IMG/VR virus record: IMGVR_UViG_3300037068_000153 | Span: 1 to 64,000 of that record | Direction: 5' to 3' (one strand) | DNA length: 64,000 nt | DNA from: a virus | Shown here: positions 26,326-44,301 of the stretch, piece after piece | How positions within the stretch are numbered: the first letter of the stretch is position 1 | Layout of the letters: every line of letters starts with the position of its first letter | Position numbers and translations under genes: made by a program | The notes under the pieces: generated by a model | What the model was told of the DNA's origin: nothing | What the model saw: the letters and a program-made list of their open reading frames with translations, nothing else | The model's database searches: none

Positions 26326-26649
26326 ATGCGAAGCTTACTGCTCTTGCTCCTCTTATCCGGCTGTGATGGCGCGCTCGCGGGCGGCGACCCGGGCGCGTGC
26401 CCCGGGGTCGAGGTCGACGGCTATGTGCAGTGCGCCCCCGCGGCGGAGGAGGGCTGCATCTGCGGGCGCCAAATGCCTCCGGGCTCCCCGCAGGCGCTGT
26501 CCGGCGGCTGCTACGCCTCGCCCGGCAAGTCGGCCTCATGCTGCGAGGGGTGTTGGGACCGGGACACCGCGCGCTGCCTTCCCGGCGACGGCAGCGAAGG
26601 GCGCTACGGCTCGCACGGCGCCAGCTGCTCGCTCGAGCCGCGACGCTAG
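26326..26649 (+). CDS. Cys-rich lipoprotein
   Basis: MRSLLLLLLLSGC lipobox; many Cys residues. Confidence 0.75.
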   Translation: MRSLLLLLLLSGCDGALAGGDPGACPGVEVDGYVQCAPAAEEGCICGRQMPPGSPQALSGGCYASPGKSASCCEGCWDRDTARCLPGDGSEGRYGSHGASCSLEPRR

Positions 26650-27602
26650 CTCTTCCGCATTTCCTCCCTGAAATACGCCACCGTCCTCGTCAGTCCGACC
26701 GCCAGCGGCGTCGTCGGCCTCCAGCCCAGGAGCCTGCCCGCGCGCCCGATGTCCGGCCGGCGGCGCTTGGGGTCGTCGGCGGGCAGCGGCAGGTAGTCGA
26801 TCGCCAGCTCGCCGTCGAGCGCCGTCGCCACCGCGCGCGCCAGATCGAGCATGGTCGTCTCGGTCGGGTTGCCGAGGTTGACCGGGCCGACGGGCGCGGG
26901 CATCGACATGAGCTTGACCAATCCGTCGACGGTGTCGGTGACGTAGCAGAGCGAGCGCGTCTGCGACCCGTCGCCGTAGATCGTGAGCGCCTGGCCCAAC
27001 AATGCCTGACAGACGAAGTTGCTCACCACGCGCCCGTCGTCCGGTGCCATGCGCGGGCCGTAGGTGTTGAAGATGCGCGCCACCTGCACGCACACCCGGC
27101 GCTGCTCGTAGCACCACGATAGCGCTTCGGCCGCGCGCTTGCCCTCGTCGTAGCAGCTCCGCTCGCCGCGCGGGTTGACGTGGCCCCAGAACTCCTCGCG
27201 CTGCGGGTGCTGGTGCGCCGGCGGGTCGCCGTAGATTTCCGAGGTGGAGGCGATCAAGATCTTGGCCGAGCAGTGCTCCGCCGCGTCCAGGGCCGCGCGC
27301 GTGCCGAAGAAGCAGGTCTCGAGCGTCCGCTGCGGGTCGCGCTGGTACGCCGGCGGGCTCGCCGGGCACGCTAGATGGTAGACCTCGTCGGGCTCGAACG
27401 ATGCCATGAGCTGCGCGGCGTTTTTCGAGCGCACGTCGTGATCGAGGATCTTGATCGCGCCGACGTCCAGATGGGCGAGGTTGGCGTGGCGCCCGGTCGA
27501 GAAGTCGTCCACGACCGCGACCTCGCGGCCGTCGGCCAGCAGCCGGTCGACGAGGTGCGAGCCGACGAAGCCGGCGCCGCCCGTGACGAGCGCCCGCTTC
27601 AC
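26646..27602 (-). CDS. UDP-glucuronate decarboxylase (UDP-xylose synthase) family SDR
   Basis: GGAGFVG, YHLACPASP, STSEIYG, YDEGK, RIFNTYGPRM, DGRVVSNF, DDPKRRRPDI. Confidence 0.92.
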   Translation of the reverse strand: MKRALVTGGAGFVGSHLVDRLLADGREVAVVDDFSTGRHANLAHLDVGAIKILDHDVRSKNAAQLMASFEPDEVYHLACPASPPAYQRDPQRTLETCFFGTRAALDAAEHCSAKILIASTSEIYGDPPAHQHPQREEFWGHVNPRGERSCYDEGKRAAEALSWCYEQRRVCVQVARIFNTYGPRMAPDDGRVVSNFVCQALLGQALTIYGDGSQTRSLCYVTDTVDGLVKLMSMPAPVGPVNLGNPTETTMLDLARAVATALDGELAIDYLPLPADDPKRRRPDIGRAGRLLGWRPTTPLAVGLTRTVAYFREEMRKS

Positions 27603-27691
27603 AGGCACCCCAGCGCGGCGCAGGCGGCGAGGATGAGCAGGATGGAGGTGCCGGCGATGAGGGCGTACGCGAGTGCAACTTGTGCTGTCAT
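27599..27691 (-). CDS. 30-aa hydrophobic peptide
   Basis: MTAQVALAYALIAGTSILLILAACAALGCL; GTGA overlap. Confidence 0.4.
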   Translation of the reverse strand: MTAQVALAYALIAGTSILLILAACAALGCL

Positions 27692-27729
27692 GCGTCCAGC
27701 CTAGCGGCCGGACAGTAGGACGTAAAGAT

Positions 27730-42014: not shown

Positions 42015-42045
42015 CGCGTGGAGAAATTGCGCAAGGGGTTTCTCT

Positions 42046-43677
42046 CTAGAGCGTGAGCCAGTTGCATAGCTGCGTCGACCCGCCGCGCGCCATGAACCCG
42101 CGAGAGCCGAACGCGCTGCTCAATACGTAGCCGCTGGGCGAATCGTCGACGAGACCGGAGACGCCGCGGACGAGCACGGGGTAGCTGGCGCCCACGCCGC
42201 CGGCGCCGTCTTTGACCAGATGCACGGCCCCCGTAGGCGTACCGCTGGCGCCTAAGAAAACGCTGAGGGATGCGCCGGTGCTCATGATGATGATCGCATA
42301 GTCGCCCGGGATCGCCGTGTAGTGGGTCGAGATCCAGCGCGTCTGCAGCACGGCGCCGCCGATATAGTCCATGCGCAACCCGCTCGATCCAGCGGTGTTG
42401 CCGAAATAGCCCGCCAGCCCGGTGGGACCTGTTGGACCCTGCGGCCCCGTAAATCCTGTCGCGCCGGCGGGCCCTGTAGCGCCCGTGACGCCGACCGCGC
42501 CCGTGTTGCCGCGGGGGCCGACCGCTCCCCCGGGGCCCGTGGGGCCGGTCGCGCCCGTCGCGCCGGCGGGACCCGTAGGTCCGGTGACGCCGCGAGCGCC
42601 GACCGCGCCGGCGGGACCTGTAGGGCCAGTTACGCCCGTCGCTCCGGCCGGGCCCGTAGGGCCTGTGTTACCGCGGGGGCCGACCGCTCCCCCGGGGCCC
42701 GTCGGGCCGGTCGCACCGGTGAAGCCCTGGGGACCGGTGGGTCCCGTGACACCGCGCGCTCCGGTTGGGCCCGTAGCGCCGGTGACGCCTGCGGGGCCAG
42801 TCGGCCCCGTCGCTCCGGTGACACCGGTGCTCCCTCGCGGGCCCGTCGGGCCAGTCGCGCCCGTCGCGCCGGCCGGACCCGTAGGGCCCGTCGCACCGGT
42901 GACGCCCTGCGCGCCCGTGTTGCCGCGCGGGCCCGTGGGGCCGGTCGCGCCGGTAGCTCCGGCCGGGCCTGTCGGACCGGTCGCGCCCTGCAGACCCGTG
43001 ACGCCCGTAGCACCGACGCCGGTCGCGCCGCGCGGGCCCGTGGGTCCAGTCGCGCCGGCGCCGCCGTGCTGCCCGATATAGGCCCAGCCCGTCGCCACCT
43101 GAAGCAGGCTGGCGTTGATTGGGCTGTGCGTGACCCCCTGCACCGTGGCGCGGAAGGTCGAAACGGCGGTGGCGCCGAACGTGGGGTCGTTCGCCTGCAC
43201 GGCGTCGTTGAGGTTGTAGCCGCTCGTGCCGCCCGACCAGAAGCCAGGCAGCCAATGAAGGCCGAACACGACCGGCACGGCCGGCGGGGTGGTCACAACG
43301 TCGGTGAAGAGCGATTGCGACGTGAGGACGACGAAGGGCGAGGAGACCAGCAGCTGTTCGCGGGTGTTGTCCGCCCGCGTGAGCACGACGTCGACGAGGT
43401 ACGGCCCCGCGGGCTTCTCGACCGTGTCCGTCGAGACGACGGAGAAGATGACGTTGCCGCTGGTCGGGTCGCCGCCGACGAAGCCTGTGTACATGCGCGC
43501 GAAAAGCAGTACGCCCTGCTGGTCGCGCACCGACATGACGACGGCGAGCGCGCCGGTCATGTCGACCGCTGTGCTGTCGACGAAGGCCAGGTGGAAGTCG
43601 CGGTCCTCCCCCTGCGCGACCTCGAGCTCTTGCGCAGTGCCGACGCTGATGGTGAGTCCGGTTACACGTGCGGCCAT
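42046..43677 (-). CDS. second collagen-like virion fibre with BppU-like N-terminus
   Basis: [13 protein letters not shown]-terminus; (GAT/GPT/GVT)n tract; C-terminal globular domain. Confidence 0.85.
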
Positions 43678-43689
43678 GCGGCGAGTCTA

Positions 43690-44301
43690 CTACAGCAGCC
43701 CTGCGGTGACGAGCGCGGCCCGGTCGTTGGCGCCCATGACATCGAGACGGCCAGCATTATTCGGGTGCGTATCGTCGCCGCTGTCATACTCGGGTTTGAG
43801 GTTGTCGGTCCCGTCGTTGAGCTGCGTATGTTCGACGCGCGCAACGATATTAGACCCGGTCACACCTGTACCGCGGATGGCCGCGTTGACCGTCAGCCAT
43901 GTGGCATATAATCCTGGGCCCACGCCATCGAAGGCTCGCCTAGCGGGGGTGATGACGCTAAGGATAATCTTGGCGGTCGGATTATTACTATTAATATCGG
44001 CGATCAAAGTATTGTATTTCCCGATAATCGTAGCGGCATCCTCCATCGCGATGATGATGTTGTTGAAGCCGGGCTCGCAGATGACCCATTTGAGATTGGG
44101 ATTACCCTTCACGACGGAGGCGTTATAGAAACCTATATTATCGTCGATGGTACGGAACGGCTGTGCCAGCGAGAGGATGCCCGGACGAGTGCGAGCCTCG
44201 GCCGCGGTATAGATACAGCTGCCGAGCATCAAATATAATCCGTTGTAGTTGGCGGCGATGGAGTCGCCGAGAATCAATCCTTCGACGTCCTTGAAGCTCA
44301 T
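43690..44301 (-). CDS. SGNH/GDSL hydrolase (esterase/acetylesterase)
   Basis: LGDSI, G.NN, D.THPN..G. Confidence 0.85.
   Translation of the reverse strand: MSFKDVEGLILGDSIAANYNGLYLMLGSCIYTAAEARTRPGILSLAQPFRTIDDNIGFYNASVVKGNPNLKWVICEPGFNNIIIAMEDAATIIGKYNTLIADINSNNPTAKIILSVITPARRAFDGVGPGLYATWLTVNAAIRGTGVTGSNIVARVEHTQLNDGTDNLKPEYDSGDDTHPNNAGRLDVMGANDRAALVTAGLL

Follow-up and report, generated by a model that had tools for sequence, protein, structure and literature searches.

The window, that is, the whole stretch of 64,000 nucleotides analysed (positions 1 to 64,000 of IMG/VR record IMGVR_UViG_3300037068_000153), belongs to the 77-kb record of an uncultured tailed phage. Directly after the myovirus baseplate genes, on the minus strand and in the same orientation as the tail, baseplate and fibre genes, lies a cassette in which two collagen-like fibre genes are interleaved with glycosyltransferase (GT), donor-synthesis and tailoring genes (Table 1). 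All the genes named in the original prediction were present there, co-oriented and 3′ of the baseplate genes, and searches against Pfam, NCBIfam and PDB confirmed the enzymes, none of which reached an NCBIfam equivalog cut-off. No enrichment of terminator-like sites was seen across the cassette block. The phage has no cultured relative, and isolated phages match its structural proteins at no more than 33% identity. Gene content and order are kept, at 60-86% amino acid identity, in G001, a complete relative that has terminal repeats.

Table 1. Features of the cassette and its surroundings, in window coordinates.
Feature	Coordinates	Strand	Evidence or remark
UDP-glucuronate decarboxylase (UDP-xylose synthase, UXS)	26646..27872	minus	PDB phmmer; Pfam Epimerase 1e-46
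Cobalamin-binding radical SAM enzyme (class B type)	27730..29262	minus	Pfam B12-binding 1e-14, Radical_SAM 1e-24
FkbM-family methyltransferase	29423..30115	minus	Pfam Methyltransf_21 3e-17; TIGR01444 above cut-off
Collagen-like fibre 1, 1152 aa	30160..33618	minus	Pfam Collagen; PHROG
GT2-GT4 two-domain glycosyltransferase, 721 aa	33631..35796	minus	Pfam
100-aa ORF	35778..36080	minus	phrog_10166, E 1e-13
Class I SAM methyltransferase, 206 aa from ATG 36712	36092..36712	minus	Pfam Methyltransf_11
82-aa ORF, N-terminus mildly hydrophobic	36712..36960	minus	no PHROG match
Short nucleotide-sugar dehydrogenase-like protein (Ugd-like), 269 aa	36961..37770	minus	compact NAD domain and central catalytic domain
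Second extended SDR (4,6-dehydratase/epimerase type)	37767..38948	minus	Pfam Epimerase 3e-41
GT4 (GT-B) half	39007..40488	minus	Pfam Glyco_transf_4, Glyco_trans_1_4; GC3 frame switch
C5 run, inter-domain linker	40508..40512	minus	+1 shift joins GT2-TPR and GT4 frames
GT2 (GT-A) and TPR half	40522..41740	minus	Pfam Glycos_transf_2 3e-15, TPR families
86-aa ORF between collagen 2 and GT	41737..41997	minus	no PHROG match
Collagen-like fibre 2, 543 aa	42046..43677	minus	Pfam Collagen
SGNH/GDSL hydrolase	43690..44370	minus	Pfam Lipase_GDSL_2 8e-9
ORF in tail-fibre position	44298-45572	minus	no family match
ORF in tail-fibre position	45487-46584	minus	no family match
ORF in tail-fibre position	46608-47687	minus	no family match
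DUF2612 (baseplate)	47697-48263	minus	
Wedge (baseplate)	48265-49734	minus	
Hub (baseplate)	51020-51919	minus	

The two predicted G-X-T fibre genes were borne out, with Pfam Collagen E-values of 1e-34 and 3e-30, far beyond chance. In collagen 1, the G-X-Y runs occupy residues 159-365 and 580-663, and Thr fills 53 of 96 Y positions; three copies of a globular module lie between and after the two G-X-Y blocks. This protein matched PHROG tail fibre families 5073, 6320 and 819 and is 59% identical to its orthologue in the close relative L007. Collagen 2 consists of an N-terminal, anchor-like beta-sandwich domain, 75 G-X-Y triplets within residues 202-428 (Thr in 46 of the Y positions) and a C-terminal globular domain. 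L007, L008 and L009, the three closest relatives, all keep its N-terminal domain, and structural look-alikes (BppU_N, Mtd_N and LtfC-like domains) offer a lead only. Lys is nearly absent from both fibres (5 and 2 residues). The three ORFs in the tail-fibre position had no match in Pfam or PHROG; their N-termini are kept in L007, and one of them contains a segment (45628-45739) similar in DNA to collagen 1.

The central enzyme had been predicted as GT2-TPR(-GT4). These domains were confirmed, with the difference that the three closest relatives encode them in a single ORF of 882-962 aa, while here a +1 change at the C5 run separates a GT2-TPR frame, running to about 40522, from a GT4 frame that begins at an ATG at 40488. 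An assembly error, a true mutation or a switch might explain the frame change. Both halves show a strong coding GC3 signal, and their catalytic motifs, DxD (as DSD) in the GT2 half and EX7E in the GT4 half, are intact. The GT2-TPR half probably starts at ATG 41740, which overlaps the stop codon of the small upstream ORF; the putative product of that 86-aa ORF looks RHH-like by eye. For the intact L007 orthologue, the best PDB sequence match was GmaR (E 4e-9), which aligned with the GT-A domain over only about 45 residues. When an AF2 model of the enzyme (pLDDT 82) was searched with Foldseek, it matched OGT, SPINDLY (SPY) and the SunS/ThuS peptide glycosyltransferases. The TM score to ThuS/SunS was about 0.57 when normalised to the target. 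Whole-chain scores were only 0.2-0.3 because, to our knowledge, no known enzyme joins both catalytic domains around one TPR. All sequence and fold matches (GmaR, OGT/SPY and SunS/ThuS) were thus to protein or peptide glycosyltransferases.

Among the donor-synthesis genes, the predicted UDP-GlcA decarboxylase was assigned from its strong PDB match to human UXS1 (2b69; E 1.6e-99, 337 bits), with homology over residues 90-406; the listed GTG overlaps the radical SAM gene, and the true start probably lies downstream of it. The copy in G001 is 84% identical. The gene predicted as UDP-Glc dehydrogenase does carry the dehydrogenase motifs GxGxxG and GGxCxxKD, but its 269-aa product lacks the C-terminal UDP-binding domain (PF03720), which is absent from the whole 77-kb record. 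Rather than a pseudogene, it is a member of a large conserved family of short forms (255-300 aa), which are elsewhere fused to NTP_transferase, SDR, GT2 and GT4 domains. With the UDP-binding domain missing, donor synthesis may depend on the host. The second SDR is generic; its best PDB matches were dTDP-glucose 4,6-dehydratases and CDP-tyvelose 2-epimerase (E about 1e-25). With this short Ugd-like form, no sugar-1-phosphate nucleotidyltransferase among the ORFs scanned and a frameshift in the key GT, the pathway cannot be called complete, as had been proposed.

The second transferase, a GT2-GT4 fusion (Glycos_transf_2 at residues 12-117, Glyco_trans_1_4/Glycos_transf_1 at 542-691), is 48-70% identical in relatives, and divergent cassettes contain its GT4 half at 26-40% identity. 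For tailoring, the B12 radical SAM gene likely encodes a C-methyltransferase or remodelling enzyme; its best NCBIfam match, the PhpK family, fell far below the cut-off. Homologues 83-86% identical in G001, 56-57% in L015 and L016 and 31% in L020 each lie just 3′ of GT genes. FkbM homologues occur in many divergent cassettes, once (in L014) fused to GT4, and the class I methyltransferase is 84% identical in L007 and 56% in L009. The 100-aa ORF matched nothing in Pfam and, in PDB, only designed coiled coils, weakly (E 0.14). The SGNH hydrolase gene is present as predicted, but its membership of the cassette is doubtful because the loci of the three closest relatives contain no match; tblastn found none in L007-L010 or in 26 GT loci.

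Comparison across genomes showed that the GT2-TPR-GT4 family is almost exclusively viral. Nearly all of about 70 full-length homologues were on phage-sized contigs of at most 90 kb, and among 185,579 prokaryote species genomes scanned just three weak matches turned up, all in MAGs. Co-occurrence with collagen genes was observed: of the 26 viral loci that carry a full-length homologue, 17 had a collagen ORF upstream on the same strand, against only 2 of the 47 loci that carry GT2-only relatives (Fisher p 2e-8, kinship ignored). The 17 loci span GC contents of 0.29-0.68 and genomes of 12-473 kb, and the gap between collagen and GT had a median of 127 bp. In a quick GT tree, the collagen-linked copies formed one deep clade, in which they made up 17 of 21 rows, the other four members having no upstream collagen; the adjacency is inherited within this clade, so the locus counts are not independent events. 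Among phages that share the baseplate wedge, collagen and GT were both present in 3 and both absent in 13, with 2 exceptions. Thr-rich Y positions do not discriminate, as they were also found in the only two collagen loci beside GT2-only relatives (0.46-0.50). The divergent cassettes share kinds of tailoring enzymes (FkbM, class I methyltransferase, radical SAM or sugar C-methyltransferase, SDR). No published description of such a phage cassette was found. Variants of it recur in many phages, from <50 kb to 470 kb, so that the suggestion that it is unusual for a myovirus does not hold.

Because the same enzyme adjoins collagen genes in very different phages, self-glycosylation of the fibres is the most likely reading. 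From sequence, structural models and analogy, we infer with a probability of roughly 0.65 that the genes form a phage-encoded protein O-glycosylation cassette acting on the phage's own Thr-rich collagen-like tail fibres. The core of the original prediction is thus favoured by the comparative evidence, although its wording on completeness and rarity went too far. In the proposed mechanism, the central TPR of the GT-A-TPR-GT-B enzyme would grip the unfolded or trimerising G-X-T repeat, and the GT-A domain would start the glycan on Thr (and Ser) in the Y position, in the manner of SgtA on BclA3 (see below). Further sugars would be added by the GT-B domain and by the separate GT2-GT4 enzyme. Pentose or modified sugar donors could come from UXS and the second SDR, with UXS probably drawing on UDP-GlcA from the host or on the short Ugd-like dehydrogenase. 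Tailoring of the glycan, by O-methylation and perhaps C-methylation, could fall to the FkbM and class I methyltransferases and the B12 radical SAM enzyme. Fibres so modified would then be joined to the baseplate, giving a virion with glycan-coated fibres. The sugars and acceptor residues named here are presumed ones. Such a glycan may stabilise a hydroxyproline-free triple helix, protect against proteases or serve adsorption or host recognition; shielding, adhesion or mimicry, as first suggested, would be speculation.

The enzymes might instead glycosylate other or additional virion proteins, such as capsid, sheath or other fibre domains, the collagen genes then simply adjoining them within the fibre module. 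In a sister clade, the GT immediately follows the major head protein, again within a virion module, and has no collagen nearby; these head proteins, however, lack Ser/Thr-rich tails. L009 has kept the enzymes while its collagen-2 homologue is devoid of such repeats and no collagen occurs in the 47 kb examined (its contig stops where collagen 1 would be), and L021 and L022 carry Gly-rich non-collagen ORFs upstream of the GT. Mycobacteriophages reportedly use GTs of their own to decorate their virion proteins, capsid and tail tube (Freeman et al. 2023, as cited in PMC12619734). Against these points, an immediately upstream collagen persists in very divergent genomes (gaps of 150 bp or less in 9 of 17 loci), and the example of SgtA applies specifically to G-X-T repeats; this reading is held to be unlikely. 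The frameshift, set against the single ORF of the relatives, and the Ugd-like protein lacking its C-terminal domain could also mean that the system is partly decayed or inactive in this virus, a remnant of a cassette working in relatives. We regard this as very improbable, given the coding signal and intact motifs of both GT halves, the ATG that could start the GT4 half, the frequency of one-nucleotide homopolymer errors as assembly artefacts and the conservation of the short Ugd form.

Two further explanations place the acceptor outside the virion proteins. In the literature, for example in papers on pelagimyophages and Nanopelagicales phages, GTs in phage fibre regions are usually taken to change polysaccharides of the host surface (LPS O-antigen, EPS or capsule), serving superinfection exclusion or release, and polysaccharide loci commonly hold members of the UXS, Ugd-like, SDR and GT4 families. 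This appears quite improbable here: the 77-kb record contains no Bac_transf, Glycos_transf_4 or Wzx, the initiating phosphoglycosyl transferase and flippase of lipid-carrier polysaccharide machinery; no transmembrane segment occurs in any cassette enzyme; protein or peptide acceptors are favoured by the central TPR and by every structural match; and the genes are co-oriented within a block of virion genes. Phage GTs are also known to hypermodify DNA, and an IbrA/IbrB-like PAPS-reductase/ParB module is present elsewhere in this phage. That these GTs glycosylate hydroxymethyl-pyrimidines of phage DNA against restriction is nevertheless extremely unlikely, since the record has no thymidylate-synthase-like hydroxymethylase and the GTs, matching protein glycosyltransferases in fold, are large TPR proteins of several domains, encoded in the fibre module rather than among replication genes.

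Glycosylation of its own collagen-like fibres would relate this phage to several known systems. Among the mycobacteriophages, siphoviruses reportedly carry the sugars on the C-terminal ends of their capsid and tail-tube subunits, and we know of no collagen repeats or GT-A-TPR-GT-B enzyme there. Mimivirus L230, like animal LH3, is a lysyl hydroxylase-GT fusion that forms hydroxylysine-linked glucose, so that a virus sugar-modifies its own collagen-like proteins; here, in contrast, the fibres are almost free of Lys and the cluster contains no oxygenase. Bacillus anthracis BclA carries rhamnose-anthrose oligosaccharides on its collagen-like region. It resembles the phage fibres as a G-X-T collagen with multi-sugar, methylated O-glycans and dedicated sugar-synthesis genes on the BclA side, and differs in lying on a bacterial spore surface and in using rhamnose and anthrose pathways. 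Among single enzymes, protein-acting OGT and SPINDLY (GT41) join a TPR to a following GT-B domain, whereas the phage GT-B is of Pfam GT4 type with an EX7E motif. The glycocin S-glycosyltransferases SunS and ThuS act on peptides and have a GT-A followed by a helical substrate-binding domain. GmaR of Listeria monocytogenes, an O-GlcNAc transferase for Ser/Thr of the filament protein flagellin (PDB 22ao, PMC9638930), likewise has a GT-A before its TPR domain, but ends in an anti-repressor domain where the phage enzyme has a GT-B.

At the level of architecture, the phage enzyme resembles SgtA of Clostridioides difficile, a soluble GT-A followed by TPRs whose gene adjoins bclA3 and which adds O-GlcNAc to Thr (and Ser) of the GPT repeats of BclA3 in vitro, the glycan then being extended by further enzymes (PMC7157674). 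In both cases the gene stands beside a G-X-T collagen-like gene. The phage enzyme differs in the extra GT-B/GT4 domain after the TPR (about 925 aa in all, compared with 358 aa in SgtA) and in being viral, encoded in a tail-fibre module together with donor-synthesis and methylation genes.

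The source virus record is 77,172 bp long and complete by CheckV, and the window has a GC content of about 66%. PHROG matches identified a late region of the myovirus type on the minus strand, with the replication genes on the plus strand upstream of it. The virus is not close to any cultured phage: the major head protein and the sheath are at most 33% identical to proteins of isolated phages, and megablast with the 20-kb region returned no relative. All the cassette genes of the original prediction are present, share one orientation within the block of virion genes, and start directly after three fibre-position open reading frames (ORFs). 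Neither promoter-like nor terminator-like sites were enriched over shuffled sequences in a scan of 26-46 kb.

Features of the late region and the cassette in the window
Feature	Position	Strand	Evidence or remark
UDP-glucuronate decarboxylase (UXS)	26646-27872	-	human UXS1, E 1.6e-99 over residues 90-406
B12-binding and radical SAM enzyme (rSAM)	27730-29262	-	PF02310 1e-14 (N-terminal), PF04055 1e-24
FkbM methyltransferase	29423-30115	-	
Collagen 1	30160-33618	-	1152 aa; Pfam Collagen
GT2-GT4 fusion	33631-35796	-	
Class I methyltransferase	36092-36712	-	ATG overlaps stop of an 82-aa ORF
Short Ugd-like protein	36961-37770	-	269 aa; GxGxxG and catalytic GGxCxxKD
SDR	37767-38948	-	generic 4,6-dehydratase/epimerase type
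GT2-TPR-GT4, GT4 part	39007-40488	-	
GT2-TPR-GT4, GT2-TPR part	40522-41740	-	
Collagen 2	42046-43677	-	543 aa, 75 triplets; Pfam Collagen
SGNH hydrolase	43690-44370	-	
Three fibre-position ORFs without assignment	44298-47687	-	cassette begins directly after
DUF2612 baseplate protein	47697-48263	-	PHROG
Wedge subunits	49736-50113 and 48265-49734	-	PHROG
Baseplate hub	51020-51919	-	PHROG
Tape measure	52947-54500	-	PHROG
Sheath	55986-57545	-	PHROG
Major head protein	60706-61758	-	PHROG
Head protease	62380-63972	-	PHROG

Two observations concern other parts of the window. At 1468-5074 lies an IbrB/IbrA-type pair, made up of a ParB-like protein (phrog_2159) and a PAPS-reductase-like one (phrog_2302), which may be a DNA or nucleotide modification module. 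A module of 55-75 aa with a weak CBM_5_12 match is common to the wedge subunit at 48265-49734 (residues ~140-205) and the sheath (residues ~108-182). In a scan with the wedge, about 25 otherwise unrelated viral contigs matched through this module alone, at 52-64% identity, so that it has the appearance of a mobile insert within virion proteins.

Both collagen-like genes proved genuine, with Pfam Collagen E-values of 1e-34 for collagen 1 and 3e-30 for collagen 2. Collagen 1 carries 96 uninterrupted G-X-Y triplets, which fall into two blocks (residues 159-365 and 580-663). The Y position is Thr in 53 of these 96 triplets and in 46 of the 75 triplets of collagen 2 (per chain), and Lys is nearly absent (5 residues in collagen 1, 2 in collagen 2). 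Both fibres match PHROG tail-fibre families, chiefly through the repeats. Relatives keep the first 200 residues of collagen 2, and the structural look-alikes of its N-terminal region in the atlas are BppU_N, Mtd_N and LtfC-like domains, a lead consistent with collagen 2 being a baseplate-anchored fibre.

Collagen 1 also holds three copies of a globular module that starts with LQ-x-AY (residues ~366-430, 666-725 and 955-1013). Its residues ~865-902 have 72% DNA identity to 45628-45739 in the fibre-region ORF 45487-46584, and this shared segment suggests module shuffling among fibre genes. Between collagen 2 and the glycosyltransferase (GT) lies an 86-aa ORF (41737-41997) with no PHROG match, whose stop codon overlaps the probable start of the GT gene (ATGA).

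The GT-A domain of the GT2-TPR-GT4 enzyme matches Pfam Glycos_transf_2 (3e-15). The window protein has DSD at residue 145, and across 13 homologues W-x-D-x-D-D is invariant. TPR repeats follow directly (TPR_19, TPR_2 and TPR_16 at residues 319-419), and the GT-B half matches Glyco_transf_4, Glycos_transf_1 and Glyco_trans_1_4 and carries an EX7E motif. Third-position GC indicates that the coding frame changes at ~40,520. Past this point the GT2-TPR frame runs into Arg/Ala-rich, non-coding-like sequence, and the +1 frame gives PPAQSKPMVEFTKFEDL, leading into the GT4 domain. In the three closest relatives both parts form a single ORF (962, 908 and 882 aa), and the closest one reads without interruption through the same GT2-TPR/GT4 linker. 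We therefore attribute the split to a 1-nt difference in the C5 run at 40508-40512. Comparison of the reading frames with the relatives' intact ORF shows the frameshift to be peculiar to this record; its cause may be an error of assembly, a genuine mutation or a switch. Local decay is possible for the frameshift only. The catalytic motifs are intact in both halves (DSD in GT-A, EX7E in GT-B).

The sole significant PDB sequence match of the GT-A domain was GmaR (E 4e-9), the flagellin O-GlcNAc transferase of Listeria, which has a GT and a TPR part (PMC9638930). For the intact enzyme of G001, a complete relative phage, AlphaFold2 gave a model with a mean pLDDT of 81.9 that shows GT-A at residues 1-~200, TPR-like helices at 207-410, a helical linker at 438-536 and GT-B at 541-914. 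With this model Foldseek found SPINDLY and OGT (TPR plus GT-B, E ~1e-15), the glycocin S-glycosyltransferases ThuS and SunS (GT-A plus a helical domain, TM ~0.57 by target), and MshA for GT-B only. Each of the multi-domain matches has a protein or peptide as its substrate.

The original prediction included a donor pathway of Ugd and UXS, within what it took to be complete donor synthesis. The UXS part stood, through the UXS1 match; a three-domain Ugd did not. In alignment with a 446-aa Ugd, the short Ugd-like protein covers residues 83-311; it has only the N-terminal NAD domain, in compact form, and the central catalytic domain. Neither this gene nor the rest of the 77-kb record encodes the C-terminal UDP-binding domain, PF03720; the idea that a neighbouring 100-aa ORF or another gene of the record supplies it was rejected, as it was not found there. 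A two-domain form of putative activity does not establish complete donor synthesis.

Searched exhaustively, a set of 1.84 billion cluster representatives yielded 472 matches to the short Ugd-like protein at E<=1e-30, and nearly all of the best 150 of these were 255-300 aa long and aligned end to end. Some family members are fused to a sugar-1-phosphate nucleotidyltransferase (NTP_transferase), SDR, GT2 or GT4. The dominance of the 255-300 aa form among the best 150 and the fusions to sugar enzymes ruled out a recent pseudogene. Because of this large short family and its fusions, we infer from sequence that the protein is a conserved two-domain variant tied to nucleotide-sugar metabolism. This family of 255-300 aa is large and apparently undescribed. 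Further fusions, to APS kinase or D-Ala-D-Ala ligase domains, were seen among the short Ugd-like proteins P0121-P0270, one of which (P0243) has an inserted LAGLIDADG intein domain.

None of the cassette enzymes, UXS included, reached an NCBIfam equivalog cut-off. The best NCBIfam match of the rSAM was the PhpK family (99.8 bits against a cut-off of 600), and its N-terminal B12-binding domain and radical SAM core have the class B (cobalamin) layout. A single-sequence scan of viral contigs with the GT2-GT4 fusion gave no match; tblastn later found homologues in the GT loci.

The order baseplate, fibre, collagen 2, GT2-TPR-GT4, (SDR, short Ugd, methyltransferase), GT2-GT4, collagen 1 recurs in three viral contigs, at 45-85% amino acid identity. 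In G001 (73,971 bp, complete, with terminal repeats), collagen 1 is followed by FkbM (69%), rSAM (83-86%) and UXS (84%). The SGNH gene had no match in the loci of the closest relatives. One of these loci, the fragmentary L009, is an exception: its collagen-2 homologue is repeat-free and 303 aa long, and it retains GT2-TPR-GT4, SDR, methyltransferase and GT2-GT4. No collagen domain was found in its 47 kb of sequence, which ends 111 bp past GT2-GT4, at the expected place of collagen 1.

A search of 5.8 billion proteins yielded about 70 full-length GT2-TPR-GT4 homologues (44-77% identity), nearly all on contigs of <=90 kb, several of ~64-74 kb. Among isolated phages the nearest match was only 27% identical. 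A bacterial origin was rejected: one genome per species from 185,579 prokaryote species gave only three weak matches, all in metagenome-assembled genomes. Three homologues (P0014, P0029 and P0045) contain inteins (PF14890).

An alignment-based scan of viral contigs for the GT gave 75 loci, in which runs of at least 8 G-X-Y triplets were sought in six frames. With full-length GT matches, 17 of 26 loci had one or two collagen ORFs upstream on the same strand, against 2 of 47 loci that matched only the GT2 part (~22% identity); Fisher's p was 2e-8, a value that ignores the relatedness of loci. The gap between collagen and GT was 4-2130 bp (median 127 bp; <=150 bp in 9 of 17), and in the window collagen 2 ends ~300 bp upstream of the GT start. 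The collagen-linked genomes have a GC content of 0.29-0.68 and range from 12-kb contigs to megaphages of 427-473 kb, two of them complete with terminal repeats. We rejected the possibility that the large contigs are giant eukaryotic viruses: they gave no NCLDV capsid match (a weak test, as the control for this family matched nowhere), and the 427-428 kb records have terminal repeats.

We also compared phages with the same baseplate wedge in which 7 kb or more of sequence follows downstream. Collagen and GT occurred together in 3, and 13 had neither; the exceptions were L009, with the GT alone and a contig end, and one phage with a marginal 9-triplet run alone. Evidently, the cassette was acquired as a unit, and the adjacency to collagen has outlasted extreme divergence of the carrier genomes.

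In a quick maximum-likelihood tree (IQ-TREE), the collagen-linked GTs formed one deep clade (17 of 21 rows), with a long-branched sister clade of 5 rows, none with collagen. The ORF just upstream of the GT is a major head protein in four of these five rows, the four tested (phrog_1005, E ~1e-52). The sister-clade GTs are ~1100 aa long and directly follow a head protease and the major head protein, with a small ORF between (L027:8192-13222, L034:8116-13168, L031:4034-8835, L035 and L029). The head proteins beside them have no Ser/Thr-rich tails. Two members of the GT clade have no collagen and instead have Gly-rich GGxGG-repeat ORFs upstream (L021:3607-5064 and L022:156-1667; 24% Gly in the L021 ORF).

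The cassette is modular: just downstream of the GT, divergent loci also have FkbM, UXS-like SDRs and a further GT4, together with the rSAM (56-57% identical in two phages of 150-200 kb and 31% in another). The viral locus L014 (GC 0.34) has, in this order, a collagen of 2340 aa (541 triplets), a collagen of 410 aa, GT2-x-GT4, a class I methyltransferase, a GT4-FkbM fusion, GT4, a TylC3-type sugar C-methyltransferase, a 4,6-dehydratase and a GFO/IDH oxidoreductase. Its 2340-aa protein lies at L014:1612-8634, directly upstream of the GT. As read from their gene content, the cassettes have a constant logic (fibre, double GT, extension GTs, methylation, donor tailoring) with varying sugar chemistry.

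Our most far-reaching reading, to which we give a probability of about 0.4, is that a virus-specific 'double-headed' GT (GT-A - TPR - GT-B) makes up, with its tailoring enzymes, a mobile glyco-collagen cassette. It would have moved with its collagen substrate between phages from <50 kb to 470-kb megaphages, and would build a multi-sugar, methylated, possibly C-methylated, xylose-containing O-glycan on fibre Thr. Phage adsorption and stability would then commonly depend on glycan-coated fibres, a determinant so far overlooked, and the sister enzyme lineage would glycosylate head proteins in the same manner. In the mechanism that we propose for the fibres, the central TPR would hold the collagen repeat, GT-A would prime Thr, and GT-B and GT2-GT4 would lengthen the chain. 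UXS, SDR and perhaps the short dehydrogenase would provide pentose or modified donors, and FkbM, the class I methyltransferase and the rSAM would tailor the glycan. The rSAM role is the least certain of these steps, since it could equally modify protein.

The acceptor might be another virion protein, a reading supported by the head-protein-linked sister clade and by L009, with its repeat-free collagen-2 homologue; the tight and persistent adjacency to collagen weakens this alternative. The usual published reading of phage GTs, modification of host polysaccharide (PMC7029224, PMC10202952), is disfavoured here by the protein-type fold of the enzyme and by the lack of initiating transferases, flippase or membrane segments. 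A search of the 77-kb record that included positive controls found no PF02397, PF00953 or PF01943, the families of the initiating phosphoglycosyl transferase and the flippase, and the cluster enzymes are soluble, none having a transmembrane-like segment; with all of these absent, a lipid-linked polysaccharide pathway was rejected. Glycosylation of DNA is likewise disfavoured, as no hydroxymethylase homologue was found in the record and the gene position speaks against it.

GTs in phage fibre regions are routinely taken as modifiers of host O-antigen or DNA (PMC7029224, PMC10202952). In the available literature our search found neither an account of glycosylated collagen fibres in phages nor one of a GT-A-TPR-GT-B enzyme. 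To our knowledge, experiments have shown glycosylation of phage virions only for the capsid and tail-tube subunits of some mycobacteriophages. The present analysis contributes the three-domain enzyme family and its phylogeny, the head-linked sister clade, a reciprocal test of presence and absence, the short Ugd family and the finding that the frameshift belongs to this record. If glycosylation of the fibres is real, a large class of phage receptor-binding structures bears glycans that are ignored by sequence-based host-range prediction, structural models and antibody studies. It would also explain how hydroxyproline-free, Thr-rich triple helices are stabilised, and the glycoengineering toolbox would gain a new protein glycosyltransferase of three domains, along with a family of short nucleotide-sugar dehydrogenases.

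Several known systems resemble the cassette in part. Virion glycosylation is known in mycobacteriophages, as cited in PMC12619734. Wzx/Wzy or O-antigen loci have an initiating transferase and a flippase, whereas the phage record has neither. Collagen is glycosylated on hydroxylysine in mimivirus and on Thr in the spore BclA proteins. The hydroxylysine route of mimivirus L230 and of animals needs Lys at Y and a lysyl hydroxylase; the phage fibres, in contrast, have 5 and 2 Lys, and Pfam found no 2OG-oxygenase domain in any cluster gene. OGT and SPY share with the phage enzyme a TPR array N-terminal to GT-B, but they belong to the GT41 O-GlcNAc/O-fucose transferases, whereas the phage GT-B hits no GT41 family, is 12-13% identical to OGT and has EX7E. 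The phage GT is distantly related to unnamed proteins of the GT2-TPR type that are 350-490 aa long. SgtA of C. difficile (358 aa; GT-A 1-260, TPR 262-358) adjoins bclA3 and transfers beta-O-GlcNAc in vitro onto Thr (and Ser) of GPT repeats (PMC7157674). The features of SgtA/BclA3 found in the phage are a GT-A with DxD, a TPR straight after it and the adjacency to a G-X-T collagen gene. SgtA is the closest functional precedent for the phage enzyme.
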